Assembly (NCBI GenBank): GCA_964521215.1
Contig: CAZFRD010000001.1
Span: 59,210 to 123,209 of the forward strand
DNA length: 64,000 nucleotides
From: an uncultured Pseudomonadales bacterium
GTDB taxonomy: Bacteria > Patescibacteriota > Microgenomatia > UBA1400 > PJMF01
Direction: 5' to 3'
Below the pieces are notes generated by a model. That model did no database searches. It had not been told where the DNA came from and saw nothing but the letters and a program-made list of their open reading frames with translations. The translations under genes and the position numbers were made by a program. Within the stretch, counting starts at the first letter, position 1. Each line of letters opens with the position of its first letter. This document shows, piece after piece, positions 25,733 to 57,265 of this stretch.

Positions 25733-25743
25733 GGCGCTACTAG

Positions 25744-28760: not shown

Positions 28761-30458
28761 ATGCGGTACAATGAAATGATGCTAAAGAAAATTCTAGCGA
28801 CCTTAGTATTGCTAGTGATATTTTTTGTTTCTTCAAGACAACTATTTTGGGGCAGATTATTTTTTTTACATGATTTTACGCATGCAGCCAGGATAGCAGA
28901 AATGGCTAGGGGACTTCAGGATGGAGATTTTCCCGTACAATGGTCAAGGAACTTTGGTTATGGTTATGGTATGCCTCTCTTTTTATTCTATGGACCATTA
29001 CCATTTTATCTTGGTGCGATCATCTATATTTTGAGCGACTCCATGATTTGGTCAGTGCTGGCATTATTTATCGTGGCTAATTTGGTTACTATTGGAGGCA
29101 CTTATTTATTGGGAAAAACCTTATCGGGAAGAGCGGGAGGCTTAATTTTAACTACGTTGTATGTGTTGGCTCCCTATCGAGCAGTAAACTTATTTGTGAG
29201 GGGAGCCCTCAATGAACTCTGGGCCATGGCACTTTTACCCTGGTTACTCTTGGGCTGGCTTTGGCTGATTAAAAAAAATAAGTTCGGCGGACTACTAATT
29301 ACAATCAGCACAGCGGCAATTATATTAACTCACAACCTATCTGCAATCTTTTTTTTACCCTTCGGCCTGCTGGTTGGCGTCGCCTTATTGTTTTGGTTGA
29401 CTGACGCTACTGAAACCAATCATCGAGCATGCTTTTCAGTCATAACGCAGGGTTTGCTGAGTACGGGTTTGGGAATTGGTTTGAGTGCTTTTTATGCTCT
29501 ACCCGCAGTGATGGAAAAAGCTTATACCCGACTAGACCGTCAGGTGCTCACTGGCTATTTTGATTTTCATAATCACTTTTTGTATTTACGTCAATTTCTG
29601 ATCGACAGTTGGACCTACGGTGGTTCCGCTTGGGGACCGGAGGATGGCATTAGCTTTTTCCTTGGCTATGGTTTGCTTTTTGGCTTAATCATGGTATTAG
29701 TTTTACTGGTTAGCAGACAATTATTACTGAAGAAAAAAAACCAACTTGTAGCCATCAGCATTTTATTTTTGTTAGTCACTAGTTTAATTTTATTAACGAC
29801 TCAAAAAACACTCTGGATTTGGGAGCACTTAACAATATTGAAGTACTTACAGTTCCCCTGGAGATTGCTCAGTCTAATTTCTTTTGGTTTGGCTCTGATT
29901 GTGACACTCGTGACGTCGTGGTCTTTCAGGCGAAAAAGTATTGTTTTGTCAGTAATTATTTTAGTCACCTTAGTTACTTCTTACCGATACTTTTCACCTG
30001 TCGAATACTATCAAGACTCAATGGGACCTTACCACTATGAAGAAAAGCAAATCCAAATTGATATGAGTGGTATTCTGCCAGATTATCTGCCCAACTCTTT
30101 TAATTCTGAAATTGCTCCTTTCCAAAAAATCATAACCGATACTGACAAGATCAAATCTGAGGTGCTTAAGGATGGTAGCTCAGAGAAGCTAATTAGTTTA
30201 GAGGTCAAGCAAGAGCTGACTCTCGAACTTTCTATAGCTAATTTTCCAGGTTGGAAGGCTTATTTGGATGGCAAGGAAACCGTTATTGAGACCACAAGTG
30301 ATGGTCTAATGACAATCCAACTGCCTTCGGGTAAACATTTGCTCAGCCTTGCCTTTGAATCAACAGGGATCAGACAAATTGGCTATTTGATTAGCTGTGT
30401 TTCGCTGGTGCTTATCATGGCAGGGCAATTTATAATTCAGCGCAAGATCCAACTCTAA
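28761..30458 (+). CDS. polytopic membrane protein, 6-pyruvoyl-tetrahydropterin-synthase-related (PTPS-related) family; putative GT-C-like glycosyltransferase
   Basis: HDFTHAARIAEMARGLQDGDFPVQWSRNFGYGYGMPLFLFYGPLPFY, followed by many transmembrane helices. It is a paralog of 48551..50242. Confidence 0.5.
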   Translation: MRYNEMMLKKILATLVLLVIFFVSSRQLFWGRLFFLHDFTHAARIAEMARGLQDGDFPVQWSRNFGYGYGMPLFLFYGPLPFYLGAIIYILSDSMIWSVLALFIVANLVTIGGTYLLGKTLSGRAGGLILTTLYVLAPYRAVNLFVRGALNELWAMALLPWLLLGWLWLIKKNKFGGLLITISTAAIILTHNLSAIFFLPFGLLVGVALLFWLTDATETNHRACFSVITQGLLSTGLGIGLSAFYALPAVMEKAYTRLDRQVLTGYFDFHNHFLYLRQFLIDSWTYGGSAWGPEDGISFFLGYGLLFGLIMVLVLLVSRQLLLKKKNQLVAISILFLLVTSLILLTTQKTLWIWEHLTILKYLQFPWRLLSLISFGLALIVTLVTSWSFRRKSIVLSVIILVTLVTSYRYFSPVEYYQDSMGPYHYEEKQIQIDMSGILPDYLPNSFNSEIAPFQKIITDTDKIKSEVLKDGSSEKLISLEVKQELTLELSIANFPGWKAYLDGKETVIETTSDGLMTIQLPSGKHLLSLAFESTGIRQIGYLISCVSLVLIMAGQFIIQRKIQL

Positions 30459-30464
30459 TCGTTT

Positions 30465-31931
30465 ATGATAGACACCACCCAGCAAGCAGAATTACAAACT
30501 ATCAAGAAACGCTCGATCTCAGGAGCATTATCTTACTTACTCCGAACTGTTGTGTTGCAAGGCATTGGTTTTCTTTCTTTGGCTATTTTAAGTAGTTTAT
30601 TTGCACCTGAAGACTTTGGTGTCTACGGGTTTGTTGTTGTCATCATTGGTTTATTAACTTTTATTTCCGATATTGGTCTTGCTGCCGCCCTCATCCAGAA
30701 GCAAACAGAACCGACCAGAGATGAATACCAGACCGCCTTTACCATTCAGCAGTTGCTCGGTTGGATAATTGTGGGTCTGGCTGTCATCTTGGTGCTATCT
30801 GGCATAGTTGCCCAAAAAACTGGTTGGGCAGGAGATTGGATTCTGCTTACCCTCGCCCTGTCTTTTCCACTTACGACTTTGAAAACAATTCCTTCTGTTA
30901 AATTGGAGAGAAAACTTGAGTTTTCCAAATTGGTTATTCCCCAGATTGCTGAACAGCTGGTGTTCCACGGAGTTTTAATCATTCTGGCCTACCAACGCTG
31001 GGGCGTGATTAGTTATGCCTATGCGATTATGGCCAGAACCCTAGTCGGAATCGTGATAATGAACTTGATCCAGCAGTGGGAATTTGGCATTACCATCACC
31101 AGACCCGCCATCAAAACACTGCTCTCATTTGGAGTCAAATTCCAACTCAACGATTTGTTGGCCAGAGTTAAAGATCAATTATTTTACTTAGTTATCGGAT
31201 TAGTCATGCCTTTGAGGGAATTTGGCTACATCCAATGGTCCAAAAATTGGTCGATGTATCCCTACACACTCACGGTGCAAAACGTCATGGCGATCACTTT
31301 TCCGACTTTTTCTCGGTTGCAAAATCAAAAAGCAGCTTTAGCTAAAGGGTTGGAACTATCTTTGTTTTGGATTACTTTGGCCATCTTTCCTCTGATAGTT
31401 GGTATGGCTTGTTTTATTTCTCCACTCCTAACGGTTTTTGCTAGCACATATGGCAAGTGGTTACCCGCAGCTTTGAGTTTTGCTCTCTTTAGTTTGAGCA
31501 TTGGGTGGAGTGCTATATCAACTCCTTTGACCAACCTCCTGACTGCCATGGGAAAAATTAATCAAACACTAAAATTGATGGTCATGTGGACGTTGCTGAC
31601 TTGGATTTTAACGCCACCCCTCCTTTGGTGGTTTGGTTATAATGGGGTGGCGATTGCAGCGCTCCTGATTAGTTTTTCATCAGTCGCCGCCGTTCGTATG
31701 GTTCAAAAAGAAATTCAGTTCGATCTGTGGTCTCAGATTTGGCCGCAACTAGTTGCGGCCAGTGCCATGGCCCTCACTGCTATTGTTGGACGCTCATACT
31801 GGCAACAAAATATCGTTTGGTTATTGGGTGGCATGAGTTTTTCGCTAGTCGTGTATGTACTGGCTTTTTATTTGCTTGCCAAAGACCGATTAATGCGTAA
31901 TATTATGTATCTGAGAAACAACAACCACTAA
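30465..31931 (+). CDS. polysaccharide/oligosaccharide flippase (Wzx-like, MOP superfamily)
   Basis: About 12-14 transmembrane helices. The N-terminus RSISGALSYLLRTVVLQGIGFLSLAILSSLFAPEDFGVYGFV is typical of the Polysacc_synt family. Confidence 0.7.
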   Translation: MIDTTQQAELQTIKKRSISGALSYLLRTVVLQGIGFLSLAILSSLFAPEDFGVYGFVVVIIGLLTFISDIGLAAALIQKQTEPTRDEYQTAFTIQQLLGWIIVGLAVILVLSGIVAQKTGWAGDWILLTLALSFPLTTLKTIPSVKLERKLEFSKLVIPQIAEQLVFHGVLIILAYQRWGVISYAYAIMARTLVGIVIMNLIQQWEFGITITRPAIKTLLSFGVKFQLNDLLARVKDQLFYLVIGLVMPLREFGYIQWSKNWSMYPYTLTVQNVMAITFPTFSRLQNQKAALAKGLELSLFWITLAIFPLIVGMACFISPLLTVFASTYGKWLPAALSFALFSLSIGWSAISTPLTNLLTAMGKINQTLKLMVMWTLLTWILTPPLLWWFGYNGVAIAALLISFSSVAAVRMVQKEIQFDLWSQIWPQLVAASAMALTAIVGRSYWQQNIVWLLGGMSFSLVVYVLAFYLLAKDRLMRNIMYLRNNNH

Positions 31932-31933
31932 CT

Positions 31934-32839
31934 ATGATCAAACTAACTGCCATCGTTAATACAAAAAATTCGGCTAAATATTTAGAGTCGTGTTTACAGT
32001 CACTCTCATTTGCTAACGAAATTATTGTGGTTGATATGGAGAGTAAAGATGAAACAAAAGCCATAGCCCACAAGTATCACGCCACAATTATTAGCATACC
32101 CCAGGCTACCTACGTTGAGTTAGTCCGTAACGACTCAATTAAATTGGCGACCAATCCTTGGATTCTGTTGGTTGATCCAGATGAAGTAATTTCTCCAAAG
32201 TTGCAGGAAAAGATCTTGGCCACCATTTCTAATCAAGACTCATCGATTGTGGCTTATCAGATTGCTCGCAAAAACCTCATTTTTGCCAAATGGATTCAAC
32301 ATAGCGGTTGGTGGCCTGATTATCAAATTCGCCTCTTCAAAAAAGGTAAAGTTAAATGGAGCGGTGTCATCCATCAAAAACCTGATCTGGATGGAGCAGT
32401 GGCGACTCTACTCCCCGAAACTGAGTATGCGATTGATCATGACAATTATCAATCGATTGATGAATATTTTGAAAAAATGCTACGTTACACTCTGGCCGAG
32501 GTTGACCAACCAGCGGCAAAAAAACCTTCTAAATTTACCTCCAATGATTTGCTGAAAGCTTTCTTTGATGATTTTTTCCGTCGTTATTATCAAAATAATG
32601 GTGATCAAGATGGTCTGCATGGTACCACCCTGGCGTTGCTTCAAAGTTTTTACCAGGTGACTACCAAACTCCGAGCTTGGGAAAAGCAACAGTTTCCTCA
32701 GTCAAACAGCTCATTGAGTACTGCCGTTGTGGATCAAATCATGAGTGATTGGAAATATTGGCAAGCTTCTAGCAAAGCGCAGAGGGCAACTGGTTGGCGC
32801 AGATTTTATTGGCTACTGAGAAAATATTTACGAGTTTAG
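31934..32839 (+). CDS. family 2 glycosyltransferase
   Basis: LTAIVNTKNSAKYLESCLQSL...EIIVVDMESKDET...LLVDPDE. Confidence 0.75.
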   Translation: MIKLTAIVNTKNSAKYLESCLQSLSFANEIIVVDMESKDETKAIAHKYHATIISIPQATYVELVRNDSIKLATNPWILLVDPDEVISPKLQEKILATISNQDSSIVAYQIARKNLIFAKWIQHSGWWPDYQIRLFKKGKVKWSGVIHQKPDLDGAVATLLPETEYAIDHDNYQSIDEYFEKMLRYTLAEVDQPAAKKPSKFTSNDLLKAFFDDFFRRYYQNNGDQDGLHGTTLALLQSFYQVTTKLRAWEKQQFPQSNSSLSTAVVDQIMSDWKYWQASSKAQRATGWRRFYWLLRKYLRV

Positions 32840-32854
32840 GCTATAATAGAAGCT

Positions 32855-33772
32855 GTGAAGCACGTTTCTGTAATTTTAGTTCACTACAATAATATTCGAA
32901 CTACCAATACCTGCATCAGATCTTTGGTATCGTTGGTACACCCTGGCTATGCTTGTCAGTTTCTGATCGTCGACAATGGTTCGGTGCGGAACTATGTGTT
33001 GCCCAAGCAACTCCGATCTTCAAAAAAATTCAAGGTAATTAGGTCCGATGCCAATCTAGGCTTTACTGGAGGAAATAACTTGGGTATTCATTTTGCAGTA
33101 GAAAATAACAATTCTCAGTATATCTTTTTACTCAATAACGATACAACTATCGAAAGAAATGCTCTACGGAATTTACTCAAAGTCTTAGAGGATCAAGCCG
33201 AGGTCGGAATTGTTAGTCCCAAAATTTATTTTACGTCCGGCAAAGAATTTCACAAACAAAGTTATAAACCATCCGAACGGGGACAGGTGCTTTGGTTTGC
33301 AGGTGGCACTATTGACTGGCAACATTTAATTGCTTTTCACCGAGGGGTAGATGAGGTAGATCTGGGTCAGTTTGATCATACAACTCAGACCGATTTTGCC
33401 ACTGGGTGTGCCATGTTGATACGCAGAGAAGTGTTAGAAAAAGTCGGTTTTTTGGATAAGCGCTATTTTATGTATTTTGAAGATGTAGATTTGAGTTTAC
33501 GTGCAATAAAGGCGGGGTACAAAATTGCTTTTTGTCCCCAGGCTAAGGTCTGGCATGACAACGCCGGCTCCTCGGGTGGTTCCGGTTCCGCGCTTCATGT
33601 TTACTACCAGGAAAGAAATCGTTATTTACTTGCTTTTACCCAAGGGAACTACTTGGTGATACCAGTTATCTTGCGCTTGCAACTGCAAGCGCTCTTATCA
33701 GGCAATCGCTTTCGTCGAAAAGCGGTGCTAGACTTTTATATGCGCTCATTTGGCAAACAGGCACTCCTATGA
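32855..33772 (+). CDS. family 2 glycosyltransferase
   Basis: VSVILVHYNN...LIVDNGS...GFTGGNNLGI...FLLNNDTTIE...FFMYFEDVDLSLR. Confidence 0.75.
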   Translation: MKHVSVILVHYNNIRTTNTCIRSLVSLVHPGYACQFLIVDNGSVRNYVLPKQLRSSKKFKVIRSDANLGFTGGNNLGIHFAVENNNSQYIFLLNNDTTIERNALRNLLKVLEDQAEVGIVSPKIYFTSGKEFHKQSYKPSERGQVLWFAGGTIDWQHLIAFHRGVDEVDLGQFDHTTQTDFATGCAMLIRREVLEKVGFLDKRYFMYFEDVDLSLRAIKAGYKIAFCPQAKVWHDNAGSSGGSGSALHVYYQERNRYLLAFTQGNYLVIPVILRLQLQALLSGNRFRRKAVLDFYMRSFGKQALL

Positions 33773-34587
33773 AAAAGCTTTCGGTGACAGCAATTATTTT
33801 GGCTAAAAACGAAGAAGCAATGCTCCCAGGATGTTTAAAAACTCTCAGTTGGTGTAAGGAGATTATCTTAATTGATGATGGATCGACGGATAAAACAGCG
33901 GAAATAGCCGAAAGTGCTGGCGTCAAAGTCATTGCTTTTAAGCACCAATCGTTTGCCAGACTCAGAGAAGAGGGGGCCAAGTACGCCAGCCAAGACTGGT
34001 TATTTTATATTGACTCCGACGAGCGAGTGACGCCTCAGTTAGCTCAAGAAATTCAGGTTAATCTGGAAAATAATAAAAACCTAGCTTTTCAAATTAACCG
34101 AGAAAATATTTTCTTTGGCAAATTATTTCAGCATGGGGGTTGGGAAACCGATCCCGTCACTCGCCTGATCAAGGCCAACGCTCTCCGTGGCTGGAGGGGA
34201 GCGATTCATGAGTCTCCGCTGATCACTGGTAAAACATCAACGCTTGAGTCACCTTTGTTGCATTTTTCCCATCGATCAGTGGCGGAGGGTCTAGTCAAAT
34301 CTGCCGCTTGGACACCAGTGGAAGCTCAACTAATTGCTAAAGCCAGTAATATGTCAGTCACCTTTATGATGATAGTAAGAAAAGGCATGGGGGAGTTTTG
34401 GCGCCGAGCAGTCAAGCATAAGGGCTACCAAGATGGCGAGGCAGGATTGATGGAGAGTTTGATCCAAGCCATCAATCGGATGTTAGTTTACTTGCAAGTC
34501 TGGGAACTCCAACAAACTCCACCCATCAAAGATTTATATGCGGTAAAAGAAAGAGAAGTAGAAATACTGTGGGAACAGGTAAAATAA
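33769..34587 (+). CDS. family 2 glycosyltransferase
   Basis: VTAIILAKNEE...EIILIDDGSTDKTAEIA...FYIDSDERVT. Confidence 0.75.
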   Translation: MKKLSVTAIILAKNEEAMLPGCLKTLSWCKEIILIDDGSTDKTAEIAESAGVKVIAFKHQSFARLREEGAKYASQDWLFYIDSDERVTPQLAQEIQVNLENNKNLAFQINRENIFFGKLFQHGGWETDPVTRLIKANALRGWRGAIHESPLITGKTSTLESPLLHFSHRSVAEGLVKSAAWTPVEAQLIAKASNMSVTFMMIVRKGMGEFWRRAVKHKGYQDGEAGLMESLIQAINRMLVYLQVWELQQTPPIKDLYAVKEREVEILWEQVK

Positions 34588-34593
34588 ACTATT

Positions 34594-35706
34594 GTGAAAG
34601 CCGTCTTTGTCTCTCCCTATTTGAAACATGTGCATACCGGCGGTGGTGAAAAACATCTGTTTGATGTGGCACTCGCCTTACCCAGGCATATTCAGCTGTA
34701 CTTCGCACTGCCCACCGAAGCAGATGTGACAGATGCCGAATTTCTTGATTATGTGGCAAGATGTAGGAACGATTACCAAGCATTTTTGGGTAAATCTTTA
34801 AAAAGAATTGAGTTTATCAGGTCGCCACTGTTTACTCAGGCTCCCTGGTATAAGAAACTACTTTGGACTCGAGAATTTGATTATCTTTACTATGTGACTG
34901 ACGGTAGTCTGTTTTTTAGTTTGGCTAGAAATAATTTACTTCATATTCAAACGCCATTGCGCAATAATCATCCTAATTTTGTGCAATCAATCAAGATAAA
35001 ACAGTGGCGCTCAGTCAACACTAATTCGGAATTTACTAAGCAAGTGGTTGAAAATGATTGGGGTATCAAGGTCAACCAGGTTCTTTATCCAGAAATTGAT
35101 GCCACATTATTAGCCACTAGAACGAAAAAAACTAATCTCATACTGTCTGTCGGTCGTTTTTTTCCTCAACTACATAGTAAAAGACAAGATATTCTGGTTG
35201 AAGCGTTTGCCCGGTTGTTAAAAGAGCAATCAAGTTTAATGAAAAACTGGCAACTAGTTTTTGTTGGCTCGGTAGAAAACAAGCTTTTTTATGACCAAAT
35301 TGTCCAGCAGGCGAAAGGCTTGGCCATTAGCTTTCAAACTAATCTTGACCACCGGGGCATCACTGATCTTTATGCGCAAGCCCGCATATTTTGGCATGCC
35401 ACTGGTTTTGGCATAGACCAGGAGAAAAACCCAGAAAAGGTTGAACATTTTGGCATTGCCACCGTCGAAGCGATGGCGGCTGGAGCGATACCGTTAGTCA
35501 TTACCAGTGGCGGGCAATCGGAAATTATTCCTTCAGCATTGAAGCCATATTGTTGGCAGAGCGTGACGGAGTTAGTGACCAATACTGCTCAACTTTTACG
35601 CGATCCCAGTAAAGAAAGTCAATTACGTAAAATTGTGCGAGCTCGAGCGGCAGATTTTTCTCATGAACAATTAGAAAGAAATGTTCGGAAATTTTTTAAT
35701 GTCTGA
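34594..35706 (+). CDS. GT4-type glycosyltransferase (Glycos_transf_1)
   Basis: The C-terminal domain has EHFGIATVEAMAAGAIPLVITSGGQSEII. Confidence 0.7.
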   Translation: MKAVFVSPYLKHVHTGGGEKHLFDVALALPRHIQLYFALPTEADVTDAEFLDYVARCRNDYQAFLGKSLKRIEFIRSPLFTQAPWYKKLLWTREFDYLYYVTDGSLFFSLARNNLLHIQTPLRNNHPNFVQSIKIKQWRSVNTNSEFTKQVVENDWGIKVNQVLYPEIDATLLATRTKKTNLILSVGRFFPQLHSKRQDILVEAFARLLKEQSSLMKNWQLVFVGSVENKLFYDQIVQQAKGLAISFQTNLDHRGITDLYAQARIFWHATGFGIDQEKNPEKVEHFGIATVEAMAAGAIPLVITSGGQSEIIPSALKPYCWQSVTELVTNTAQLLRDPSKESQLRKIVRARAADFSHEQLERNVRKFFNV

Positions 35707-36601
35707 TGCCCTAACTGTGACTACCATCATCCCCACTTATAACGGCAGAAAACTGCTAGAAAAAAATCTGCCTTCCGTCCTACGTTCATTAAGAAATGGG
35801 GATGAGTTAATTATCATCGATGATGCCAGCCAAGACGAAAGTTGCAATTGGTTAAAATATGGTTTTCACCTCACTCAGCAACGCAAACCAAATCTTTCAG
35901 ATAAGCATGGTGAGTTTGAGTTGTTTCAGGGATTTGTAGTATTGAAACATAAGAGAATTGCAATTACTTTAATTGAAAATGCTCGCAACCTCAGGTTTGC
36001 CGCTAGTGTTAACCGAGCGGTTGGGTTAGCAACAAAACCCTTGCTCTTTTTGCTCAACTCGGATGCATCGGTTCAACCAGATACAGTTGATTGTTTGGTG
36101 AAGGCATATCAGAATAACGCTCAGCCCATTTTTGCTATTGGTTGCTTGGAATATGAAGGCGAAATCAACCAAGACCTAAAAAGTTTACCTACGGCAGGAA
36201 AAAACAAACTTTGGTTTGAACGTGGCTATTTTATGCACAGCAAAGCTAGCACCGATGCCTCGGGCGAAACGGTCTGGGCGAGTGGGGGGAGCGCGCTGTT
36301 CAACCGCGAAAGATGGCTAGCATTGGGGGGATTTGACGAGCGTTTCGCCCCGGCTTATTGGGAAGATATCGATCTTTCCTATCGTGCTAAAAAGAAAGGT
36401 TGGCAAGTCTTGTTTGAAAGATCGGCCGTTGTTTTTCATCAGCATGAATCAACTAACCAGCGTGTATTTTCAGAATCGGAAGTTCAACAACTCAGTTGGA
36501 AACACGCCGCCTACTTTGTGCAGAAACATGGCTCTTTTTGGCAAAAGCTAGCTTTTGTCTTATGGCAACCATATTGGTTATGGAAAAGATCTCGCCAATG
36601 A
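35699..36601 (+). CDS. family 2 glycosyltransferase
   Basis: VTTIIPTYNGRKLLEKNLPSV...LIIIDDASQDES...FLLNSDA...YWEDIDLSYRAKKKGW. Its stop overlaps the next gene's start within the bases ATGA. Confidence 0.7.
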   Translation: MSDALTVTTIIPTYNGRKLLEKNLPSVLRSLRNGDELIIIDDASQDESCNWLKYGFHLTQQRKPNLSDKHGEFELFQGFVVLKHKRIAITLIENARNLRFAASVNRAVGLATKPLLFLLNSDASVQPDTVDCLVKAYQNNAQPIFAIGCLEYEGEINQDLKSLPTAGKNKLWFERGYFMHSKASTDASGETVWASGGSALFNRERWLALGGFDERFAPAYWEDIDLSYRAKKKGWQVLFERSAVVFHQHESTNQRVFSESEVQQLSWKHAAYFVQKHGSFWQKLAFVLWQPYWLWKRSRQ

Positions 36602-38193: not shown

Positions 38194-38233
38194 TGTTTCA
38201 AAGTCGGAGCCGTTCCAAAACGATCTTTTTTTT
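38180..38233 (+). terminator. hairpin spanning the stop codon plus a ccgttccaaaacg hairpin and T8 tract
   Basis: ccgac-caa-ctttga-tgtt-tcaaag-tcgg, then gagccgttccaaaacgatc followed by tttttttt. Confidence 0.5.
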
Positions 38234-45148: not shown

Positions 45149-46724
45149 ACCACTTTTACTTAGCTTGTTGGTCATATTTTTGCTGGGTTTATTTTTTCGG
45201 TTCTTTCAACTCTCCACTACCGCACCCATACTCAATCGTGATGAGGCGGCTTTGGGTTATAACGCCATGTTGCTCAAAGAGACAGGCAGAGACGAGTGGG
45301 GCATCAGTTGGCCGATTACGCCCAGATCTTTCGGTGACAGCAAGCTGATTGGCTACCCACTACTGTTAGTCGGCCTGTTTCAGTTTTTGCCCCAAGCTGA
45401 CTGGGTTGTTCGCTTGCCAGCCATCATTGCGGGCTCATTACTATCCATTCTAGTATATTTTTTTGCTCGACAATTAGGTGTAACCAAAAGTTTCGCTCTT
45501 TTAGCCTCACTGAGTATTGCCGTCAATCCCGTGTTCATCCATTTTTCCCGGTTTGCTTACGAAGCCATGGTAGCTTTGACGTATTTTGTCGCTGCCACTA
45601 CGTTAATCCTTTGCCCCACCAAGCAGTTCAAGCGCAGGCTAGTTTTTGACTTGGTGGCAGCGTTACTCTTTTTTGCCAGTTTGTTGACCTACAACACTCC
45701 ATTGCTATTATTGCCACTTTTGATTTTACTTATTCCAATTCAACGAGGAATGTTTCCCGTTAAGATCTGGCTGAGTTCAGTTGCGATTTTGAGTCTCACC
45801 TGGGTGATTGCACTAGCATTGCTGTTTCCCATGCTGGCGCAAAAAAGTGGCATTTCAATTTTTTCGGATCAAACATACATCCAAGCGTATCCACAGTTTC
45901 GTGCTTCATTTAACACCTTGCTCCGGCCCCTGTTGGGGAATCAATATATTTACTACGGCAAATCAATCCTGACACAAATGTTGAAAAGTTTTTCTGCTCA
46001 TTTTATCGTTACTGCCGGTGGCACCCATCCTTGGCACACGCTCAGAAATCATGGTCATCTCAGCTGGATCATCTATCTTGGTTTTCTCATCGGCATTATC
46101 TCTTATGGAACTAAACTCATTAGACGTGATCGTAGATTAAGCAAAAATAATCATTTTCTAATGCTTTTGTTGATTGGCTCATTAATTCCCGCCAGTATTA
46201 CGGTAGATGCACCCCATGCAACTCGGAGTTTATTATTTTTTGTTTTAGTGACTGTTATCGCCGTTTACGCTTATCAACAATTATCAGCTCATATTCACTT
46301 GTCACTACTGGGAAGATTTACAAAGCGACTTATCATATTGGGAATGCTTGCCACAACTCTCATTGGCGGTCTCTCTTTCTTCACCCAGTATCTAGAAAAC
46401 TATCCTGCCCAAGCTGCTCGGGTTTACCAAGCTGGTTTCGATCAAATAATTACTACTTTAAACAAACAATATCCCAATTCCAATATTGCAGTGGTAGATC
46501 CCGGTGGATTTCAGTATATATTGTTGGCTTGGTACGCCAAATATTCTCCTGCAGAATTTTTTCAAACAATAGTCAAACAACAACCCAACACAATTGGTTT
46601 ACAATATGGTGAAAGTCTCGGTCGCTACCATTTTATTATGCAAGCTTCAGATCAGTCACCGGTGGAGGATATCTTAGTATTTTGGAATGAGTCGACTAAT
46701 CAATGGCAGTACTTACGATCATGA
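45132..46724 (+). CDS. GT-C glycosyltransferase, GT39/PMT-ArnT-like (paralog 5)
   Basis: FFRFFQLSTTAPILNRDEAALGYNAMLLKETGRDEWGISWPITPRSFGDSKLIGY...VVRLPAIIAGS. Confidence 0.7.
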   Translation: MMLQNKPLLLSLLVIFLLGLFFRFFQLSTTAPILNRDEAALGYNAMLLKETGRDEWGISWPITPRSFGDSKLIGYPLLLVGLFQFLPQADWVVRLPAIIAGSLLSILVYFFARQLGVTKSFALLASLSIAVNPVFIHFSRFAYEAMVALTYFVAATTLILCPTKQFKRRLVFDLVAALLFFASLLTYNTPLLLLPLLILLIPIQRGMFPVKIWLSSVAILSLTWVIALALLFPMLAQKSGISIFSDQTYIQAYPQFRASFNTLLRPLLGNQYIYYGKSILTQMLKSFSAHFIVTAGGTHPWHTLRNHGHLSWIIYLGFLIGIISYGTKLIRRDRRLSKNNHFLMLLLIGSLIPASITVDAPHATRSLLFFVLVTVIAVYAYQQLSAHIHLSLLGRFTKRLIILGMLATTLIGGLSFFTQYLENYPAQAARVYQAGFDQIITTLNKQYPNSNIAVVDPGGFQYILLAWYAKYSPAEFFQTIVKQQPNTIGLQYGESLGRYHFIMQASDQSPVEDILVFWNESTNQWQYLRS

Positions 46725-47527
46725 AAATCAACTCTTGCCAGCTATCGGTAGTCCTTGCGATTTACAACGAAGCGCATAACTTAACTCGCTGTTTAGAGTC
46801 CGTCGCCAGCATCGCCGATGAAATCATTGTGGTCGATGGAAATTCAACCGATAATTCTGTAGCCATTGCTCGATCGTTCAAGGCAAAAATCATTTCTACT
46901 TCCAACAAAGCCAATTTTCACATCAATAAACAGCAAGCGATTGATGCGGCAAAAGGACAATTAATCCTTCAGCTTGATGCTGATGAGGCAGTCTCTTGGC
47001 AATTGGCCAAATTCATCAGCGAAATAAAGACCCAGCCAACCAAATATCAAGCCATTGCTGCTTGGTGGTTGATCCGAAAAAACTATTTTCTTGGTCATTG
47101 GCTAAAGAAAGGTGGGCAATACCCAGATCCGGTTATTCGTTTGTTTTGGCGAGGTAAAGCTCAATTACCGCAAAAAGATGTCCACGAGCAAATGCGAGTC
47201 AAAGGCATAATTGGTTGGGCAGAAGGGCACCTAGATCATTTTAGTACACCAACTCTAACTGAGTACGCAAGAAAAATGAACGCTTATACTAGTTTTAAAG
47301 CTAACCAACTGGCAACCGAGAAAATCAAGATTAATGTTCCTAACTTGATAAAATATTTTTTTTATTTGCCAACGCTGACATTTTTTTCATTACTAATTCG
47401 TCACAAAGGTATTCTTGATGGTTGGGCGGGCATGCTTTTTGCTGGACTCAGTAGCGCCCATTTTCCCCTACAATATCTTAAGTTATGGGAAATCTATGAA
47501 ACTCACAAACTCAAACATCAAAGTTAG
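46721..47527 (+). CDS. family 2 glycosyltransferase
   Basis: LSVVLAIYNEAHNLTRCLESV...EIIVVDGNSTDNS...LQLDADE. Its start overlaps the upstream gene's stop within the bases ATGA. Confidence 0.7.
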   Translation: MKINSCQLSVVLAIYNEAHNLTRCLESVASIADEIIVVDGNSTDNSVAIARSFKAKIISTSNKANFHINKQQAIDAAKGQLILQLDADEAVSWQLAKFISEIKTQPTKYQAIAAWWLIRKNYFLGHWLKKGGQYPDPVIRLFWRGKAQLPQKDVHEQMRVKGIIGWAEGHLDHFSTPTLTEYARKMNAYTSFKANQLATEKIKINVPNLIKYFFYLPTLTFFSLLIRHKGILDGWAGMLFAGLSSAHFPLQYLKLWEIYETHKLKHQS

Positions 47528-48554
47528 ACTGGATACGTCACCACTCCAATCGGGACACGAGCTAAGAGGTATTGGTGTTTATACCAGGTTATTGGTACAA
47601 TATTTGTCGGCTGAACCAACCATCATACTAACCACCAACAACACAAACAATAGTCAAGTCGAGCTGGTTCACTACCCCTTTTTTGATTTCTATTTTCCCA
47701 CTTTGCCAATTAAACCCTGGCAGAAAACGGTGGTGACAATTCATGACGTAATTCCTTTAATTTATCCGAATCAATATCCTGCGGGAAAAAAGGGAACAAT
47801 ATATTTTAAAAAACAACTATTGGCTCTTAAATTTATCTCAGCAGTAATTACTGATTCCGAAGTTTCAAAACAAGATATTCATCAATACTTGAAAACGCCA
47901 CTAGCAAGAATATTTGTCGTTCATTTAGCTGGTCAGCCAGAATTGTCTCCAGCCAATGAAGAAGCAATCAGCCATGTCAAAAAGAAATTTGGTTTAAAAA
48001 AACCATATGTCTTGTATGTGGGCGATATTAACTTTAATAAGAATTTGCCCCAACTGATTAAGATGCTTAAATATTTGCCAGATGAAATACAACTTGTTTG
48101 TTTTGGTAAAGCGATGAGAGAAAGTGATATACCCGAATGGAAAGCCATCATCACCCAAGCGGCACTGAGCAATGTTGAATCTCGGATCTGTTTTATTTCC
48201 GATATCCCGCATGACGACTTTTCCACCTTGGCCGCTCTTTACTCTGGCGCATTGTGCTATGTTCAACCATCGCTATATGAAGGCTTTGGTTTACCGGTGT
48301 TAGAAGCCATGCAATGCGCCACCCCAGTCGTCGTCTCCAACTCCGCTTCACTGCCAGAGATAACTGGTGAAGCTGGTTTGTTGGTTGACCCAGACGCAGC
48401 AGCATTGGCCGACGGTGTCTTAAAAGTGTACAACTACTCAAATTCTACCCGTCAAAAAATTATTTCTCTCGGCTTAAGTCATGCCAATACATTTTCTTGG
48501 AAAAAAACCGCCCAGCAAACTATTGAGGTCTACCGAAAGGTACTAGCCAGATGA
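47499..48554 (+). CDS. GT4-type glycosyltransferase (Glycos_transf_1)
   Basis: LYEGFGLPVLEAMQCATPVVVSNSASLPEITGEAGLLVDP. Confidence 0.75.
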   Translation, partial: KLTNSNIKVRLDTSPLQSGHELRGIGVYTRLLVQYLSAEPTIILTTNNTNNSQVELVHYPFFDFYFPTLPIKPWQKTVVTIHDVIPLIYPNQYPAGKKGTIYFKKQLLALKFISAVITDSEVSKQDIHQYLKTPLARIFVVHLAGQPELSPANEEAISHVKKKFGLKKPYVLYVGDINFNKNLPQLIKMLKYLPDEIQLVCFGKAMRESDIPEWKAIITQAALSNVESRICFISDIPHDDFSTLAALYSGALCYVQPSLYEGFGLPVLEAMQCATPVVVSNSASLPEITGEAGLLVDPDAAALADGVLKVYNYSNSTRQKIISLGLSHANTFSWKKTAQQTIEVYRKVLAR

Positions 48555-50242
48555 GACGTCTATCACTGTTTGTCTTCATAGCGGTTTTAGTTGTCACTCG
48601 TTTTTTCTGGCTAAACAGTGGCGTACCTTACACCCACGACGGTGAAAATCACTTAGCTCGTTTCGCTAACTACAAATTAGCCGTCAAAGAAGGTCAACTG
48701 CCCCCTCGTTTTTCGCCAAATTTACATAATCGCTATGGCTATCCAGTTTTTAACTACAATTATCCGTTAGCCAACATTTTATCTCTACCTTTTAGCCTAT
48801 TCAAAGTTCACTATGAACTGACCTTCGAGCTAATTATTTTTTGGGCCCTGGTGGTAGGTAGCTTTGGTTTAATTCGCTGGCTGAAGCCCGATGCGACCAG
48901 CAATCGGCCGATTTTAGCCGCTTTAATCGCTTACTTATCTGGGCCACCCCTCATTTCTACCCTGCTTTTTCGGGGAAGTATTGGCGAAATACTGGCCTAT
49001 GCGCTTTGGCCATGGCTGTTTGTCAGCGTCAGAGCATTATCAAAAAGATTAAACATTAAATTGTTGGTGCTAAATATTTTTATTTGGTCAACTTTTTTAT
49101 TAGCTCACAATATTAGTGTTTACCTAGCTGTATTTATCATCTCAATCTATAGTTTGTGGCAACTAGTTGTTACTCAGCAAAAAAAATTATTCATTTTGCA
49201 AATGAGTGTCATCTTGATTGCATCAATTGGTTTGACTCTTTGGTTTTGGCTGCCTGCGATTACCGAAATGAAAGAGGTTGTGGTAGCGCAGGCAGCCAAC
49301 CAGCGAGAGTATTTATTACATTTTCCCACTCTCAAGCAACTTATCTACAGCCCCCTAGCTTTTGGTTATTCGTATCCCGGGCCAGTGGATACGCTCAGTT
49401 TTTGGTTAGGCTGGGTGATTCCAGCTGTATTGATTCTATTATTGGCTTTAGCGATTGCAAATATATGGTTCAAGCAACTGAAGATTAAATCATTAATAAA
49501 CAGTCTTAAATCAAAACCCTGGCTGTTTTTTACTTGTTTGCTATTTCTCAGTCTATATTTGCAAACATCTAACTCTAGTGATATTTGGCAACTAATACCT
49601 AATTTTCGATTAATTCAATTTCCCTGGCGATTTGGTCTGATTTCAACTGTTTTTAGTTTACCCTTACTTGTTTGGTTACTAGAAAGTAAAAATAGCATCA
49701 TTACCAGAATTATTTGGTTGGTGATTTTCATTCAACTAGTCGTTGTACTATCCGCTCATCCAGTTGATTATGTGGCTAAACAAAAATATGAATACGATCT
49801 CCATGGTGGCACCACTTCCACTCAAAACGAAAATATGCCACCGGCTTTTCGTTATTTATTAATCGCCGATTGGCAACCCTCACCCTCCATATTGGCTGGC
49901 GACGCGCAAATCGCCAAAGTCGAATTATGGAGTGGTTCACAGCATCTGTACCGAATTAATGTCGCTACCACAGCCACTATTGTTGAACCAACGATGAATT
50001 TCCTAGGTTGGGAAACTAGGGCGCGATCAATCATCGGCGCCGACTCTACCAATAGCTTGGTTAAGTATATCGACTCCGATGAGATTCAGGGGCGAATTGC
50101 CTACGTGCTTGCACCCGGTATTTACCAAATAGAAACCAAATTTACTCAAAATACTCCAGCTAGACAAATCGGCAACGCTACTCTAGTCATCACAATCGCG
50201 TCCATATTTGGCATATTTGTCTGGCGTAAACTCCGGTTGTGA
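48551..50242 (+). CDS. PTPS-related polytopic membrane protein (paralog of 28761..30458)
   Basis: HDGENHLARFANYKLAVKEGQLPPRFSPNLHNRYGYPVFNYNYPL. This parallels the HD..H.AR....G.FP.....YGYP.F...PLP motif of the other copy. Its start overlaps the upstream gene's stop within the bases ATGA. Confidence 0.5.
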   Translation: MRRLSLFVFIAVLVVTRFFWLNSGVPYTHDGENHLARFANYKLAVKEGQLPPRFSPNLHNRYGYPVFNYNYPLANILSLPFSLFKVHYELTFELIIFWALVVGSFGLIRWLKPDATSNRPILAALIAYLSGPPLISTLLFRGSIGEILAYALWPWLFVSVRALSKRLNIKLLVLNIFIWSTFLLAHNISVYLAVFIISIYSLWQLVVTQQKKLFILQMSVILIASIGLTLWFWLPAITEMKEVVVAQAANQREYLLHFPTLKQLIYSPLAFGYSYPGPVDTLSFWLGWVIPAVLILLLALAIANIWFKQLKIKSLINSLKSKPWLFFTCLLFLSLYLQTSNSSDIWQLIPNFRLIQFPWRFGLISTVFSLPLLVWLLESKNSIITRIIWLVIFIQLVVVLSAHPVDYVAKQKYEYDLHGGTTSTQNENMPPAFRYLLIADWQPSPSILAGDAQIAKVELWSGSQHLYRINVATTATIVEPTMNFLGWETRARSIIGADSTNSLVKYIDSDEIQGRIAYVLAPGIYQIETKFTQNTPARQIGNATLVITIASIFGIFVWRKLRL

Positions 50243-50274
50243 CCGTAATTGTTTGTCATTACAATAACTAATAT

Positions 50275-51192
50275 ATGAATTCACAACCACTACGTATCAT
50301 TGTGACAGGCGGATCTGGTTTCTTGGGACATCATTTAATTCGCTCATTCTTACGAGAGGGGCATCAAGTACGCAATATTGATTTGCGACCCAATCCAGAG
50401 CATGAAACGCTCTTGGCCGATGTTCGTGACCAAAACCGCATGCAGGAATTAGTCAAAGATGCTGACGTGGTTTTCCACCTAGCTTCACTGATAGAAGCTG
50501 GTGAGTCGGTCAAAGAACCTGCTAAGTATTTTGACAATAACTTAGTGGGCACCCTATCAGTTCTCGAAGCCATGCGTCAAAATCAAATCAACAAAATTAT
50601 TATTTCTAGTAGCGCTGCCATTTACGGTGAGCCACTGCGCACACCAATATTAGAAGATGACCGCACCTTACCCATCAATCCCTACGGTGTCACAAAATTG
50701 GCGATGGAAGGTTTGTTGCGATCTTATGTAGCGTCGCATGGATTTACCGGTCTAGCACTTAGATACTTCAATTTGTACGGACCCGAGGAGCATCATCAAC
50801 CAGAAACCCATGCTATTCCCAGGTTTATTAAGCAAATATCTAATGAAGAGGAAGTCACTGTTTGGGGTGACGGGGGACACCAGCGAGACTATGTCTATAT
50901 TAGCGATATCGTTGATGCTCACTTACTTGCCCTAACCTATGTGCTTGATCATCCCCAACAATATCACTACTTCAATCTTTCGGCCGAACAACCCACTTCT
51001 GTCCTGGAAATTATTAAACATTTAGAAAAATTCATAAATAAAACGGCTAATATCAAGTTCTATCCCGACCGTCCTGGTGACCCACGGATTTTAGTGGCTG
51101 ATGCTTCCAAGGCAAGGACAGAGCTTGAATGGCAATCTTCGGTAACGATAGAGAAAGGACTGGAACGCACATGTCAGTATTTTCTTCATTAA
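50275..51192 (+). CDS. NAD-dependent sugar-nucleotide epimerase/dehydratase (SDR, GalE-like)
   Basis: IIVTGGSGFLGHHL...SSSAAIYGEP...YGVTKLAMEGL. Confidence 0.8.
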   Translation: MNSQPLRIIVTGGSGFLGHHLIRSFLREGHQVRNIDLRPNPEHETLLADVRDQNRMQELVKDADVVFHLASLIEAGESVKEPAKYFDNNLVGTLSVLEAMRQNQINKIIISSSAAIYGEPLRTPILEDDRTLPINPYGVTKLAMEGLLRSYVASHGFTGLALRYFNLYGPEEHHQPETHAIPRFIKQISNEEEVTVWGDGGHQRDYVYISDIVDAHLLALTYVLDHPQQYHYFNLSAEQPTSVLEIIKHLEKFINKTANIKFYPDRPGDPRILVADASKARTELEWQSSVTIEKGLERTCQYFLH

Positions 51193-52883
51193 GAAAACAA
51201 TGGATAATATTATTTGTCCTATTTATACTTGGCTTTGGTTTGCGTAGTTTTAACTATCAATCATTTCCGCTAGGATTTGATCAAGTTATTTTATTAGAAA
51301 ACGCCGAGAAGATCTTATCTGGACGACCGGTTTTGATTGGCCCCAAGACCGGTTACGCGGACATCTTTATCGGTCCATTGACTTACTATCTAACAGCTGT
51401 GGCGATGCTATTTTCTCACTCAGCCTATGCTTTAGTAATTTATCAGTTAGTGATCGTATCGATTACGATGTTGATTATCATCACTTTGTCGCTGCGTTAT
51501 TTACCCAAATATCTCGGTTGGACCGTTATCATTCTTTGGATGTTTTCTCCTTTTATTTTGCATTTTGATCGTATGCCCTGGAATCCCAGTCTGCTCAATC
51601 TTGCCTCTATCCTTACCTTGTTCCCACTGCTTTCAACAAAAAAATTTGGCTGGATGGAATGGACACTTGTTGGCGCTGGTTGCTTTTTGGGTTTTCAGTC
51701 ACATTTCTCGGGTATCTTCTTGCCCCTCTTAACGCTCTTACTGACAATCAAATCAAATCGACCAGGTACATGGATGATTAGAGGCTCGGCCATTTTTGGT
51801 TTTTCCATTGGTTATTTACCACTTTTAGCATTTGATATTAGACATCAATTTATGAATCTTAACGGCTTAAAAGCTCTGTTACTTGGGGGAAATAGTTCTG
51901 GATCAATGTTTGATCTGGGAGTGAATATTTTACGCAGCACTCAAATTACTGTAGAAAATACCGGTAAGATTCTGTTTTTTAATACCAACGCGCCTTTGTT
52001 TATTGTTGCTGGGATAGCAATACTGATTACTGCGTTTATTATATTTTATAAGCATAAACATCACACCTTACTGATTTCATTGAGTTGGGTGATCTTAATT
52101 GGGCTTTTTTATGGTTTTTACAAAGGTCCTCGACCAGAATACTATTATTTAATTCAGTTTCCAGGAATAATATTGGTGCTAGCTCATGTTTTCAATCATT
52201 TTCAATTAACACATATCAAGCTCTTGTTGGCCATAATTTTAGGTTCGACTGTATGGTTGCATACCATCATGTATTCCAACTCATCTAGTCTCAATATTGA
52301 TAATTTACTGGCGATTTCTTCTTATGTCCACAAAATAGAGTCTCAATTTGGTGTTAGTCAACTTTCATTAGATATGTCTTTAGCAAATAGAGACGGATTG
52401 GCCTACTTATTGCGTGATATTGATCTTCACTTAGGTGGGAAACAAATTCATATTAGTTATCCTGACAGAGTGCCTTACTCTGATACCAAATATTTTGAAG
52501 GCATTAGTGTTTGGACTGATCCAAGATTATCGGGCTTACACTTAACTGAACCAAATTACATAATTTTATATCAGTCTCCACTTGGTATTTATAAATCGTT
52601 TTCCAACGATCAGGATTTTGGTCAGCCTTTTAGCTATGTGGTGTTTAATAACGATAATCTTCTTGGCAAGATCTATATTATTGATAAAAAGACCTCAGAA
52701 AAAGAATGGCAACTAATTATTGAAGGATGTATTGACAAGCCCTGTGAGGGTGGTTGGCAGCCACTGAGTTTGAATGGAAAAAGTGGATATATTATTTTGT
52801 TCAAAGAAAATGCATTCTTTTTTGTGGCTAATGAATTAGAGAATTTTCAACGGTCTAGCCTAGCAGGAATTAGCTTTTATTAG
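51171..52883 (+). CDS. polytopic membrane protein, GT-C-like candidate (same unnamed family as 38514..40058)
   Basis: Likely start MSVFSSLRKQWIILFV. Contains ...FDQVILLENAEK... and MPWNPSLLNLASILTLFPLL, with about 12 transmembrane helices. Confidence 0.4.
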   Translation: MSVFSSLRKQWIILFVLFILGFGLRSFNYQSFPLGFDQVILLENAEKILSGRPVLIGPKTGYADIFIGPLTYYLTAVAMLFSHSAYALVIYQLVIVSITMLIIITLSLRYLPKYLGWTVIILWMFSPFILHFDRMPWNPSLLNLASILTLFPLLSTKKFGWMEWTLVGAGCFLGFQSHFSGIFLPLLTLLLTIKSNRPGTWMIRGSAIFGFSIGYLPLLAFDIRHQFMNLNGLKALLLGGNSSGSMFDLGVNILRSTQITVENTGKILFFNTNAPLFIVAGIAILITAFIIFYKHKHHTLLISLSWVILIGLFYGFYKGPRPEYYYLIQFPGIILVLAHVFNHFQLTHIKLLLAIILGSTVWLHTIMYSNSSSLNIDNLLAISSYVHKIESQFGVSQLSLDMSLANRDGLAYLLRDIDLHLGGKQIHISYPDRVPYSDTKYFEGISVWTDPRLSGLHLTEPNYIILYQSPLGIYKSFSNDQDFGQPFSYVVFNNDNLLGKIYIIDKKTSEKEWQLIIEGCIDKPCEGGWQPLSLNGKSGYIILFKENAFFFVANELENFQRSSLAGISFY

Positions 52884-52903
52884 TTTATTTAAATCGTCGC
52901 TGT

Positions 52904-54319
52904 TTAAATTCGCTGAATTATAACTGACCAAAGTTTATCAGAACAAAATATTTCATTTATTTGTTTCGATTCGCCAAACTGCGTCAACTCATTATACGCA
53001 GTTTTTCCATGCTCATACTTAGAGTGATCGACAATCACCACCATTGTATTTGCTCCATCAATTTGAGTATCTAATTCTTTAATCACGCAGCCACTACGTG
53101 CCAACAAATACTTCCACTCCATACCATTGTGATAAGGATGTATATCTGATTGCACACTTAAAAATACCGGAACACTCAAACTGCTGCATATTTTCTCTGC
53201 GCACTGCAAGCTTTGACTAAATGAGCGATATGAAGGAGAAAAGTAGGTATTTAATTGAGTGGGTCTGATCCAATATGCTATCAATAAACAACTTAATGGA
53301 ATAAACAGCTTTATCTTTAATAAAGAAGTTGTAAATATTGCTACAGTTAAAACGGCAAAAATATAGTGAGCTTGGATTGATATTGGAATTACCAAGGTGA
53401 TCATTACTGTAAGTGCTAGAACTAGAACAGAAGGATAAAAGAAAGAAGAAAATAGTTTGTATTTTGAAAAATAGTGAACAAATATACAAATAACTAAACA
53501 TATACCTACGATAAACTGTACTTCTAAAGGAATACTCGTCATAGCTAGTGAAATTAACTCTAGAGTCTTTTCATACCAACCAGTGGTTGTTTGTGTTAGT
53601 TTTTCTCCGTTGATCAGTAAGTTGGTTAGTAAAAAATGATGACGTAATTCAAAGACTATTGTCGGAATATTCCAGAATATTACAGAGACGAACGTCATTC
53701 CGGCAAACCACAGCGTTTTAATTTTTGAACGAAATATGAGAGCAGAGGAGATAATAAATGCCACGAGAGCTGGTCCCGCTGAGTAATTTAAAGATGTGGC
53801 TAATGAAATTGAGAAAGTCGCGATAAATAAGTATTTCAACTTCCAATCTTTTAGTAACAGAAGCCATGATACTAAAGCAATCAAGATTAAGATGGGTAAA
53901 AATGATGGATTCCAAACAAACCGATTTTGAATGATGATTTGGGGATGAATGCTGATAATCAACAAAGAAATAAGTATGGGAAGTTGTAGTTGCTTGGTAT
54001 TTTTTGTTAGTTTATAAATTAATGCTATTCCCGATAGGTAAAAAATAATTAGAGTCATGACTGAAGCGTATGGAGACTGACCAGACAATAAAAACATGGG
54101 CATCAAAAGATAAAAATAGACAGCGCTCTGATTGTAGGGTAATGCGCTGGTTTGAGGTCCAAGTAAGGGAGGCTTCCAAGACTGTTGCCAATTAAATAAA
54201 ACCCAATAATCACGACCAATATCATTGAAAAACAACAAGGATTGATTAAGTTGAAATAATCTTAAAAAGATAAATATAATGCAGACAGCTATCAAAGATA
54301 GTAGGTAATGATTTTTCAC
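52904..54319 (-). CDS. polytopic membrane protein, GT-C-like candidate (same unnamed family)
   Basis: FFNDIGRDYWVL...FVWNPSFLPILILIAL with many transmembrane helices. It is convergent with the preceding paralog across a 20-nt gap. Confidence 0.4.
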   Translation of the reverse strand: MKNHYLLSLIAVCIIFIFLRLFQLNQSLLFFNDIGRDYWVLFNWQQSWKPPLLGPQTSALPYNQSAVYFYLLMPMFLLSGQSPYASVMTLIIFYLSGIALIYKLTKNTKQLQLPILISLLIISIHPQIIIQNRFVWNPSFLPILILIALVSWLLLLKDWKLKYLFIATFSISLATSLNYSAGPALVAFIISSALIFRSKIKTLWFAGMTFVSVIFWNIPTIVFELRHHFLLTNLLINGEKLTQTTTGWYEKTLELISLAMTSIPLEVQFIVGICLVICIFVHYFSKYKLFSSFFYPSVLVLALTVMITLVIPISIQAHYIFAVLTVAIFTTSLLKIKLFIPLSCLLIAYWIRPTQLNTYFSPSYRSFSQSLQCAEKICSSLSVPVFLSVQSDIHPYHNGMEWKYLLARSGCVIKELDTQIDGANTMVVIVDHSKYEHGKTAYNELTQFGESKQINEIFCSDKLWSVIIQRI

Positions 54320-57262: not shown

Positions 57263-57265
57263 ATG

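Follow-up and report, generated by a model that had tools for sequence, protein, structure and literature searches.

In the rhamnose cell-wall polysaccharide (Rha-CWPS) systems of streptococci, lactococci and enterococci, the backbone is made on polyprenyl phosphate in the cytoplasm, exported by an ATP-binding cassette (ABC) transporter and ligated to peptidoglycan by an LCP (LytR-CpsA-Psr) enzyme (PMC9574508, PMC8035078). Their GT-C glycosyltransferases (GacL, WpsJ, WpsI, CsdB/D) act on the outer face of the membrane, taking sugars from undecaprenyl phosphate (C55-P)-linked donors that are flipped by Wzx or GtrA proteins, and one of them, WpsI, is a polymerase (PMC9574508, PMC8035078). YfhO-type enzymes glycosylate lipoteichoic acid (LTA) in Bacillus and Staphylococcus (PMC8035078). 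Here, a 64-kb stretch of DNA (the window) from a Patescibacteria (Microgenomates/Woesebacteria-like) metagenome-assembled genome (MAG) was analysed, in which an island first drawn as positions 28761-54319 encodes ten polytopic membrane proteins. All ten are homologs of GT-C-fold glycosyltransferases with one common N-terminal catalytic module, and the region is probably (at roughly 0.6) the core of a cell-wall glycopolymer cluster of the rhamnose type found in streptococci and lactococci, with unusually many outer-face GT-C transferases.

All open reading frames (ORFs) named in an earlier, sequence-only reading of this DNA were recovered at the same coordinates in an ORF listing, and the starts at 36598, 40062 and 51171 match public gene calls on identical DNA. 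All-against-all blastp resolves the ten polytopic proteins into three clean groups, A1-A2, B1-B3 and C1-C5:

28761-30458, plus strand: A1, GT-C enzyme of the PTPS_related/YfhO type
48551-50242, plus strand: A2, second GT-C enzyme of the PTPS_related type
38514-40058, minus strand: B1, GT-C enzyme of the W-N-P subfamily of PMT_2, in opposite orientation inside the C array
51171-52883, plus strand: B2, diverged GT-C enzyme of the W-N-P family, GC content 0.36
52904-54319, minus strand: B3, diverged GT-C enzyme of the W-N-P family, convergent with B2, GC content 0.34
36598-38193, plus strand: C1, first of five PMT_2-like ("GT39") GT-C genes, its start overlapping the stop of the GT2d gene as ATGA
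40062-41768, plus strand: C2, tandem GT-C paralog
41758-43446, plus strand: C3, tandem GT-C paralog
43424-45148, plus strand: C4, tandem GT-C paralog
45132-46724, plus strand: C5, tandem GT-C paralog

Sequence and profile searches of the PDB with families A, B and C found nothing significant (in the profile search ArnT appeared at E 0.13 for family C, and for neither A nor B), and structures were therefore predicted. The models of A1 (AF2, pLDDT 91.4, pTM 0.92) and B1 (pLDDT 90.2, pTM 0.90), both obtained from alignments of 40-41 sequences, superpose on solved GT-C enzymes, and a Foldseek search with the A1 model retrieved AftD (5.6e-5), AftA, AglB, ArnT and STT3; the link to solved GT-C enzymes came from this fold comparison only. 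The three families are joined to each other by hhalign, with B matching C at 97.1% (E 5e-11), B matching A at 95.7% (E 9e-9) and A matching C at 93.3% (E 3e-7), the matches covering the N-terminal 160-220 residues. All ten proteins have their first transmembrane helix inside residues 1-31, with a loop of 48-73 residues after it. A few residues after that helix, D38 of family B, D38 of family A (within its conserved H37-D38 site) and the (D/E)31-E32 pair of family C coincide in the profile alignments, while the W-N-P of family B aligns where A and C carry R-x-x-x-E. These conserved acidic and basic residues appear to fall at GT-C catalytic-loop positions, and they are retained in the paralogs of each family, save for R-D in B2. 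A one-to-one mapping of the catalytic residues onto ArnT or PglB failed, and a Kyte-Doolittle profile with a positive-inside count overlooked helices and contradicted itself on orientation, so that it was not used to place the motifs.

The proposal that both multi-copy families, A and B, are of the GT-C type is supported by structure prediction with fold search and by the profile-profile links to the GT39-like C array, and no assignment to a transporter or another non-glycosyltransferase family, the outcome named beforehand as its refutation, appeared. As a novelty the proposal does not stand, PTPS_related and PMT_2 both being already listed in the Pfam GT-C clan CL0111 (PMC7801869). The label "PTPS-related" is itself misleading, because its bearers are GT-C glycosyltransferases. 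The description of the two families as uncharacterised is fair in the experimental sense, although both belong to catalogued Pfam families.

The paralogy of A1 and A2 is borne out by blastp (E 6e-21, 26% identity over 574 columns; 31% in a MAFFT alignment) and by a motif block common to both, H-D..H.AR...G..P...YG.P.F, A2 keeping all 34 family-invariant residues. Set against the gathering cut-off of 26.4 bits for Pfam PTPS_related (PF10131), A1 scores 33.6 bits and A2 falls just short with 24.8 bits, and most listed relatives of family A carry the domain. YfhO (PF09586) matches the last 67 residues of A1 only (model positions 768-834 of 835, 32.1 bits), a full-length match to this model being absent from A1 and any match absent from A2. 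In A1 the polytopic core is followed by a C-terminal beta-sandwich (~residues 464-532), and a last transmembrane helix closes the chain.

Links within family B are weak by blastp (B1-B2 1e-5 to 1e-7, B1-B3 1e-6, B2-B3 0.2), and for this reason the family profile was built without B2 and B3. With this non-circular hidden Markov model B2 reaches 95 bits (1.4e-30) and B3 75 bits (3e-24), and neither gives a match to the A or C profiles. Of the earlier description of B1-B3 as three paralogs sharing D-x-x-R-D and W-N-P, the paralogy and the W-N-P hold for all of them, N142 being invariant in 40/40 relatives, while D-x-x-R-D occurs in B1 and B3 only, B2 retaining the first Asp without the R-D. The conserved acidic sites are D38 (and D42), and the family signature can be written as F-x-x-D-x-x-R-D ... 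W-N-P-N ... H-Y. B1 passes the 26.1-bit gathering cut-off of Pfam PMT_2 (PF13231) with 32.4 bits, B2 (17.8) and B3 (18.2) remain below it, and 34 of 40 relatives match the model at E<=0.01. Public records already name relatives of this family "glycosyltransferase family 39 protein" or "4-amino-4-deoxy-L-arabinose transferase-like" (ArnT-like), so the family is not an unnamed one, as had been thought, and its sequences place it as an apparently diverged PMT_2 subfamily; "GT39" in those records reflects the PMT_2 match rather than demonstrated activity. Family B is large, with 2,003 clusters at 50% identity at E<=1e-30 and 7,128 at E<=1e-10.

Members of family C are 24-35% identical over local blastp alignments (about 25-30% near full length), with E values from 1e-11 to 1e-59, and share a (D/E)-E pair after the first transmembrane helix, S-F/Y-G-D-x-K, F-S/T-R-x-x-x-E and P-H-x-x-R. 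C1 (36.1 bits) and C3 (34.7) exceed the PMT_2 cut-off, C4 (23.5) lies below it, and C2 and C5 give no PMT_2 match. For Pfam PMT (PF02366), the model of GT39 protein O-mannosyltransferases, only C5 shows a match, of 18.5 bits and thus under the 22.7-bit cut-off. The contrast previously drawn between a "GT39 array" and an "unnamed family" is hence artificial, because Pfam recognises family C no better than family B.

B1 and C2 are divergent genes whose start codons lie 3 bp apart (window 40058-40062), and the layout is kept in a relative at 63% identity (locus L084, 9997-10001). With such spacing, each promoter would have to lie inside the other gene, or B1 would be transcribed by another route.

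The closest relatives of B1, at 62-63% identity, come from a Woesebacteria MAG and one further MAG. Locus L084, which belongs to one of these two, keeps the order LCP, A1, Wzx, five glycosyltransferase genes, C1, inverted B1, C2-C5, GT2, GT4 and A2, this synteny being gene for gene with proteins 57-63% identical, and a relative at about 38% identity keeps a GT2-GT4-A-epimerase module among nine GT-C-like genes. Among 80 loci in other genomes found with the family-B profile, family A occurs within 10 kb in 39, family C in 20 and both in 16, while at least two GT-C genes are present in 47 and nine in one. Because these loci were collected by way of family B, the counts show that the genes often cluster and are no unbiased measure of association. 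GT-C arrays of this kind turn up again at Woese-, Pace-, Beckwith-, Gottesman- and Moranbacteria loci. Two Moranbacteria/Moraniibacteriota loci (L027, 1502-13214; L052, 1458-11524) carry six to seven family-B-like GT-C genes head to tail, an expansion style different from that of the mixed A/B/C islands. Many MAG records with Patescibacteria-type loci (L002-L081) are titled "uncultured Pseudomonadales", "Gammaproteobacteria" or "Bdellovibrionales"; these titles look unreliable and were not used.

The ten genes are embedded among genes for sugar synthesis, cytoplasmic glycosyl transfer, export and ligation:

24839-25849, minus strand: rmlD (TIGR01214 below cut-off; Pfam RmlD_sub_bind)
25744-26367, minus strand: rmlC (TIGR01221 below cut-off; Pfam dTDP_sugar_isom)
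26374-27417, minus strand: rmlB (TIGR01181 469.8 bits, above the equivalog cut-off of 365)
27667-28737, minus strand: LCP glycopolymer-to-peptidoglycan ligase (PF03816 5.9e-31; TIGR00350 94 bits, cut-off 62)
30465-31931, plus strand: Wzx/MOP-family flippase (PF13440 1.4e-48; NCBIfam MOP flippase 95 bits, below cut-off)
31934-32839, plus strand: GT2a, Leloir-type cytoplasmic transferase (PF00535/PF00534-type match)
32855-33772, plus strand: GT2b (GlfT2 in the PDB, 2.5e-13; TIGR01556 rhamnosyltransferase 76 bits, cut-off 200)
33769-34587, plus strand: GT2c, Leloir-type cytoplasmic transferase (Pfam)
34594-35706, plus strand: GT4a, Leloir-type cytoplasmic transferase (Pfam)
35681-36601, plus strand: GT2d, Leloir-type cytoplasmic transferase (Pfam)
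46721-47527, plus strand: GT2e (PF00535 1.3e-20)
about 47490-48554, plus strand: GT4b (PF00534 8.3e-27)
50275-51192, plus strand: GalE-like NAD-dependent sugar 4-epimerase (PF01370 1.3e-61; TIGR01179 galE 222 bits, cut-off 262)
55763-56731, plus strand: Wzm-like ABC-2 permease (PF01061 4.5e-19; galactan_ABC_perm 77 bits, below equivalog cut-off)
58407-59174, plus strand: TagH/Wzt-like ATPase (TagH 203-238 bits, Wzt 190 bits, below equivalog cut-offs)
60878-62080, plus strand: a further GT4 at the downstream edge of the island (PF13692, PF00534)

Pfam thus confirms the seven GT2/GT4 transferases (five GT2 and two GT4), the Wzx flippase, the epimerase and the LCP ligase that had been read from the sequence. 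The LCP gene, divergent from A1, sits just outside the start of the island as first drawn. Those limits were too narrow in general, with the dTDP-rhamnose synthesis genes rmlBCD lying upstream of them and the ABC exporter and more glycosyltransferase genes downstream. The flippase gene follows A1 after 6 bp, and the GT2e-GT4b pair precedes A2, the order GT2-GT4-A being kept in relatives L083 and L084. The best matches of the five GT2s in NCBIfam and the PDB are GmaR, SunS, GlfT2 and EpsD-like proteins, and none corresponds there to a C55-P-sugar-synthase family (GtrB/CsbB/GacI). The three small GT2 paralogs have a K-G-x-x-D-G-x-x-G...W-E region in common at their C-terminal end, and a C-terminal transmembrane pair was not seen in the alignment of the GT2s. 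The best named matches of the exporter are galactan and teichoic-acid exporters.

Intergenic gaps do not exceed 15 bp within 28761-38193 or 32 bp within 40062-52883, and start/stop overlaps as ATGA were verified at 36598, 46721 and 48551. Such tight spacing is consistent with the long operons proposed earlier, and it is on spacing that the proposal has to lean, because the promoter and terminator scans were no better than shuffled sequence: two promoter sets gave 35 hits against 30.6±5.2 and 52 against 47.7±7.5, and two terminator sets gave 16 against 11.6±3.5 and 15 against 13.5±3.9, without excess over chance. Scans of the window for tRNA genes and Rfam families were both empty.

Some further features of the stretch were recorded. 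The GC content is 0.34-0.37 in B1, B2, B3 and the adjoining gene at 54433-55476, versus 0.40-0.44 in the rest of the island (38514-40058; 51171-55476), and it is also low (0.32-0.36) in GT4c and in an ORF of no assigned family at 62083-63039; these low-GC genes may represent later acquisitions or a variable part of the cluster. The adjoining gene, whose product has 347 residues, stands before B3 on the minus strand and is without a match in Pfam or NCBIfam, and a perfect TTGACA-16-TATAAT on the minus strand at 55488-55515 ends 11 nt upstream of its ATG. The genes of the glycopolymer ABC exporter alternate with toxin-antitoxin genes (55763-60691): BrnT (56960-57262, minus strand) and a 96-aa partner ORF follow the Wzm-like permease, DUF6922 and AbiEii genes occupy 57475-58417, their stop overlapping the start of the Wzt/TagH-like ATPase gene (58407) by 11 bp, and a second AbiEii pair, whose partner has no assigned family, follows that gene at 59221-60691. 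An independent Logan contig (L082) shows the same layout, and public assemblies searched for an extension of the source contig yielded short Logan contigs only. On either side of the wider region lies an FkbM-family methyltransferase gene, at 7935-8807 and on L082 at 10069-11181, just past window position 63039, and the products of these two genes could methylate glycan sugars. Farther upstream, a 192-aa ORF at 4839-5417 matches only the C-terminal part of RVT_1 (5.7e-17) and may be what is left of a group II intron or retron. Three large ORFs of 662-706 aa (1549-3549, 5878-7866, 15303-17423) have no Pfam match, one of them showing a sub-threshold PcfJ-like hit, and they do not match the A, B or C profiles.

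From the gene set, read alongside the streptococcal and lactococcal rhamnose wall-polysaccharide pathways, we infer the donors, the acceptor and the order of steps of a wall-polysaccharide pathway. The cytoplasmic GT2 and GT4 enzymes would build lipid-linked glycans on polyprenyl phosphate from nucleotide sugars, presumably including dTDP-rhamnose (RmlBCD) and a UDP-hexose epimerised by the GalE-like enzyme, and the Wzm/Wzt-type ABC exporter and the Wzx flippase would carry these glycans to the outer face of the membrane. There, the GT-C enzymes may add branches or chain segments to the exported polymer from polyprenyl-phosphate-linked sugars or oligosaccharides, the differing C-terminal outer domains of A, B and C setting the acceptor or linkage specificity of each enzyme, before the LCP enzyme would join the product to peptidoglycan. 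The suggestion, already made from the sequence, that some of these proteins might be polymerases fits WpsI, the GT-C polymerase of Rha-CWPS clusters.

Several observations weigh against this pathway. A polyprenyl-phosphate sugar synthase of the GtrB/CsbB/GacI type, a GtrA flippase, an initiating transferase of the WecA/WbaP type (PF00953, PF02397) and rmlA were all sought in the window and not found. Moreover, the three small GT2s are most similar, if weakly, to the soluble protein- and peptide-glycosylating enzymes GmaR and SunS, the rhamnosyltransferase match of GT2b lies below its cut-off, and the outer-face position of the catalytic motifs is taken from homology. Finally, PMT-type and oligosaccharyltransferase (OST)-type enzymes are equally good structural matches, which does not pin down the acceptor. 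Both PMT-type and OST-type enzymes glycosylate proteins. As for the initiation step, the streptococcal initiating GlcNAc-1-P transferase gene (GacO/RgpG/WecA type) is also unlinked.

Instead, the ten GT-C enzymes, or some of them, could be protein O-glycosyltransferases or oligosaccharyltransferases acting on secreted proteins, for example S-layer proteins, pilins or wall-bound enzymes, comparable to actinobacterial PMT, PglB/AglB or streptococcal PgfM1/PgfM2, with a Wzx-flipped lipid-linked oligosaccharide as donor. Family C retains, in loop 1, the (D/E)-E pair that is typical of PMTs, the likeness of the small GT2s to GmaR and SunS points in the same direction, and neither a Wzy polymerase, searched for across the window, nor a WaaL ligase is there to use the Wzx product. 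The C-terminus of A1 also matches PgfM2 and PgfM1, but only with 23-28 bits against cut-offs of 1400-1500. On the contrary, none of the ten proteins reaches the PMT (PF02366) cut-off, no gene for a candidate acceptor protein is evident in the island, and the flanking LCP ligase, rmlBCD and Wzm/Wzt exporter are hallmarks of a wall-linked polysaccharide and not of protein glycosylation. Protein glycosylation is thus held to be unlikely.

Modification of a membrane glycolipid or of an LTA-like polymer, as ArnT does on lipid A and YfhO/GtlB on LTA, rather than of an LCP-anchored wall polysaccharide, appears decidedly improbable. The match of the family A C-terminus to YfhO agrees with such a role, whereas LTA synthase or lipid A genes were not seen in the window, no equivalog-level match to ArnT (GT83) was obtained in NCBIfam, and the gene context points to a polymer built on polyprenol and ligated by LCP. 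A reading of the multi-copy membrane proteins as transporters, or as polytopic proteins of some other kind, with compositional artefacts as Pfam matches, which the low PMT_2 and PTPS_related scores (18-36 bits) and the lack of significant PDB sequence or profile matches might suggest, is essentially refuted by the conserved acidic and basic residues at GT-C catalytic-loop positions and by the absence of any transporter family match.

A bolder extension of the wall-polysaccharide pathway is that the ten GT-C enzymes form an extracytoplasmic assembly line, comparable to mycobacterial Aft/Emb, in which most of a complex envelope glycan is put together from lipid-linked sugars, with family B as a mechanistically distinct, Patescibacteria-specific clade. 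It is regarded as rather doubtful; if true, a bacterium with a very small genome would build a complex glycan outside the cell, and family B might use an unusual donor or acceptor.

Patescibacteria, or candidate phyla radiation (CPR) bacteria, have minimal genomes and a host-attached life, and their envelope chemistry is almost unknown. That one island devotes ten genes to outer-face glycosyltransferases suggests that a complex surface glycan matters to these cells. Neither the fold nor the place in the Pfam clan nor the logic of the pathway is new, and no new kind of system is revealed; the novelty lies in how many GT-C paralogs a single island of a reduced genome holds, in their recurrence in Patescibacteria and in the clear signature of family B. 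No dedicated paper on GT-C, GT39 or PMT proteins in Patescibacteria/CPR was found in the literature searched. The practical gain is better annotation, family B being definable by its signature.

Set beside its neighbours in the same fold, family B differs from A and C in carrying W-N-P-N in place of R-x-x-x-E and Q-D-x-x-R-D in place of D-E. The reference PMT_2/PMT members, ArnT (GT83) and the protein O-mannosyltransferases (GT39), have no equivalog-level match here. Transmembrane glycosylation systems (CsbB/GtcA/YfhO, GtlA/GtlB, CsdAB/CD/EF) have GT-C partners that carry PMT_2, YfhO or no Pfam domain, as do B/C and A in this island. They resemble it further in that small GT2 genes adjoin GT-C genes (here GT2d-C1 and GT2e-GT4b-A2) and a Wzx/MOP flippase is encoded with a GT-C gene, here A1. 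They differ from it in that the GT2s of the island are without C-terminal transmembrane helices and GtrB/CsbB signatures, and no GtrA-type flippase accompanies them.

The mycobacterial arabinogalactan/lipoarabinomannan set (AftA, AftB, AftC, AftD, EmbA/B/C) provides the example of many GT-C paralogs devoted to one outer wall polysaccharide, as proposed here, and AftD and AftA are the best PDB fold matches of family A. Rhamnose, a GlfT-like GT2, a Wzm/Wzt exporter and LCP have a part in that pathway too, and in the island GT2b resembles GlfT2 and the model of the galactan exporter recognises the permease. Nonetheless, identity to the mycobacterial proteins is only 10-16%, genes for decaprenyl-phospho-arabinose synthesis were not seen, and the proteins of the island are half the size of Emb/AftD, without their carbohydrate-binding modules.

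The likeness to the Rha-CWPS clusters (gac, rgp/scc, cwps, epa) extends over rml genes, GT2/GT4s, an ABC-2 exporter pair, a Wzx-family flippase, outer-face GT-C enzymes and LCP (PMC9574508, PMC8035078), and the combination by which such clusters are recognised, rml genes, an ABC-2 exporter pair and LCP clustered with glycosyltransferases, is present in the window, rmlA excepted. On the contrary, no C55-P-sugar synthase of the GacI/GacJ or WpsA/B type and no GacO/WecA-type initiator are recognised there, the proteins are not orthologous to those of the known clusters, every NCBIfam equivalog match having been judged far below cut-off, and the host is a Patescibacteria MAG. The locus also differs in number, with ten GT-C genes here versus one to three in the known clusters.

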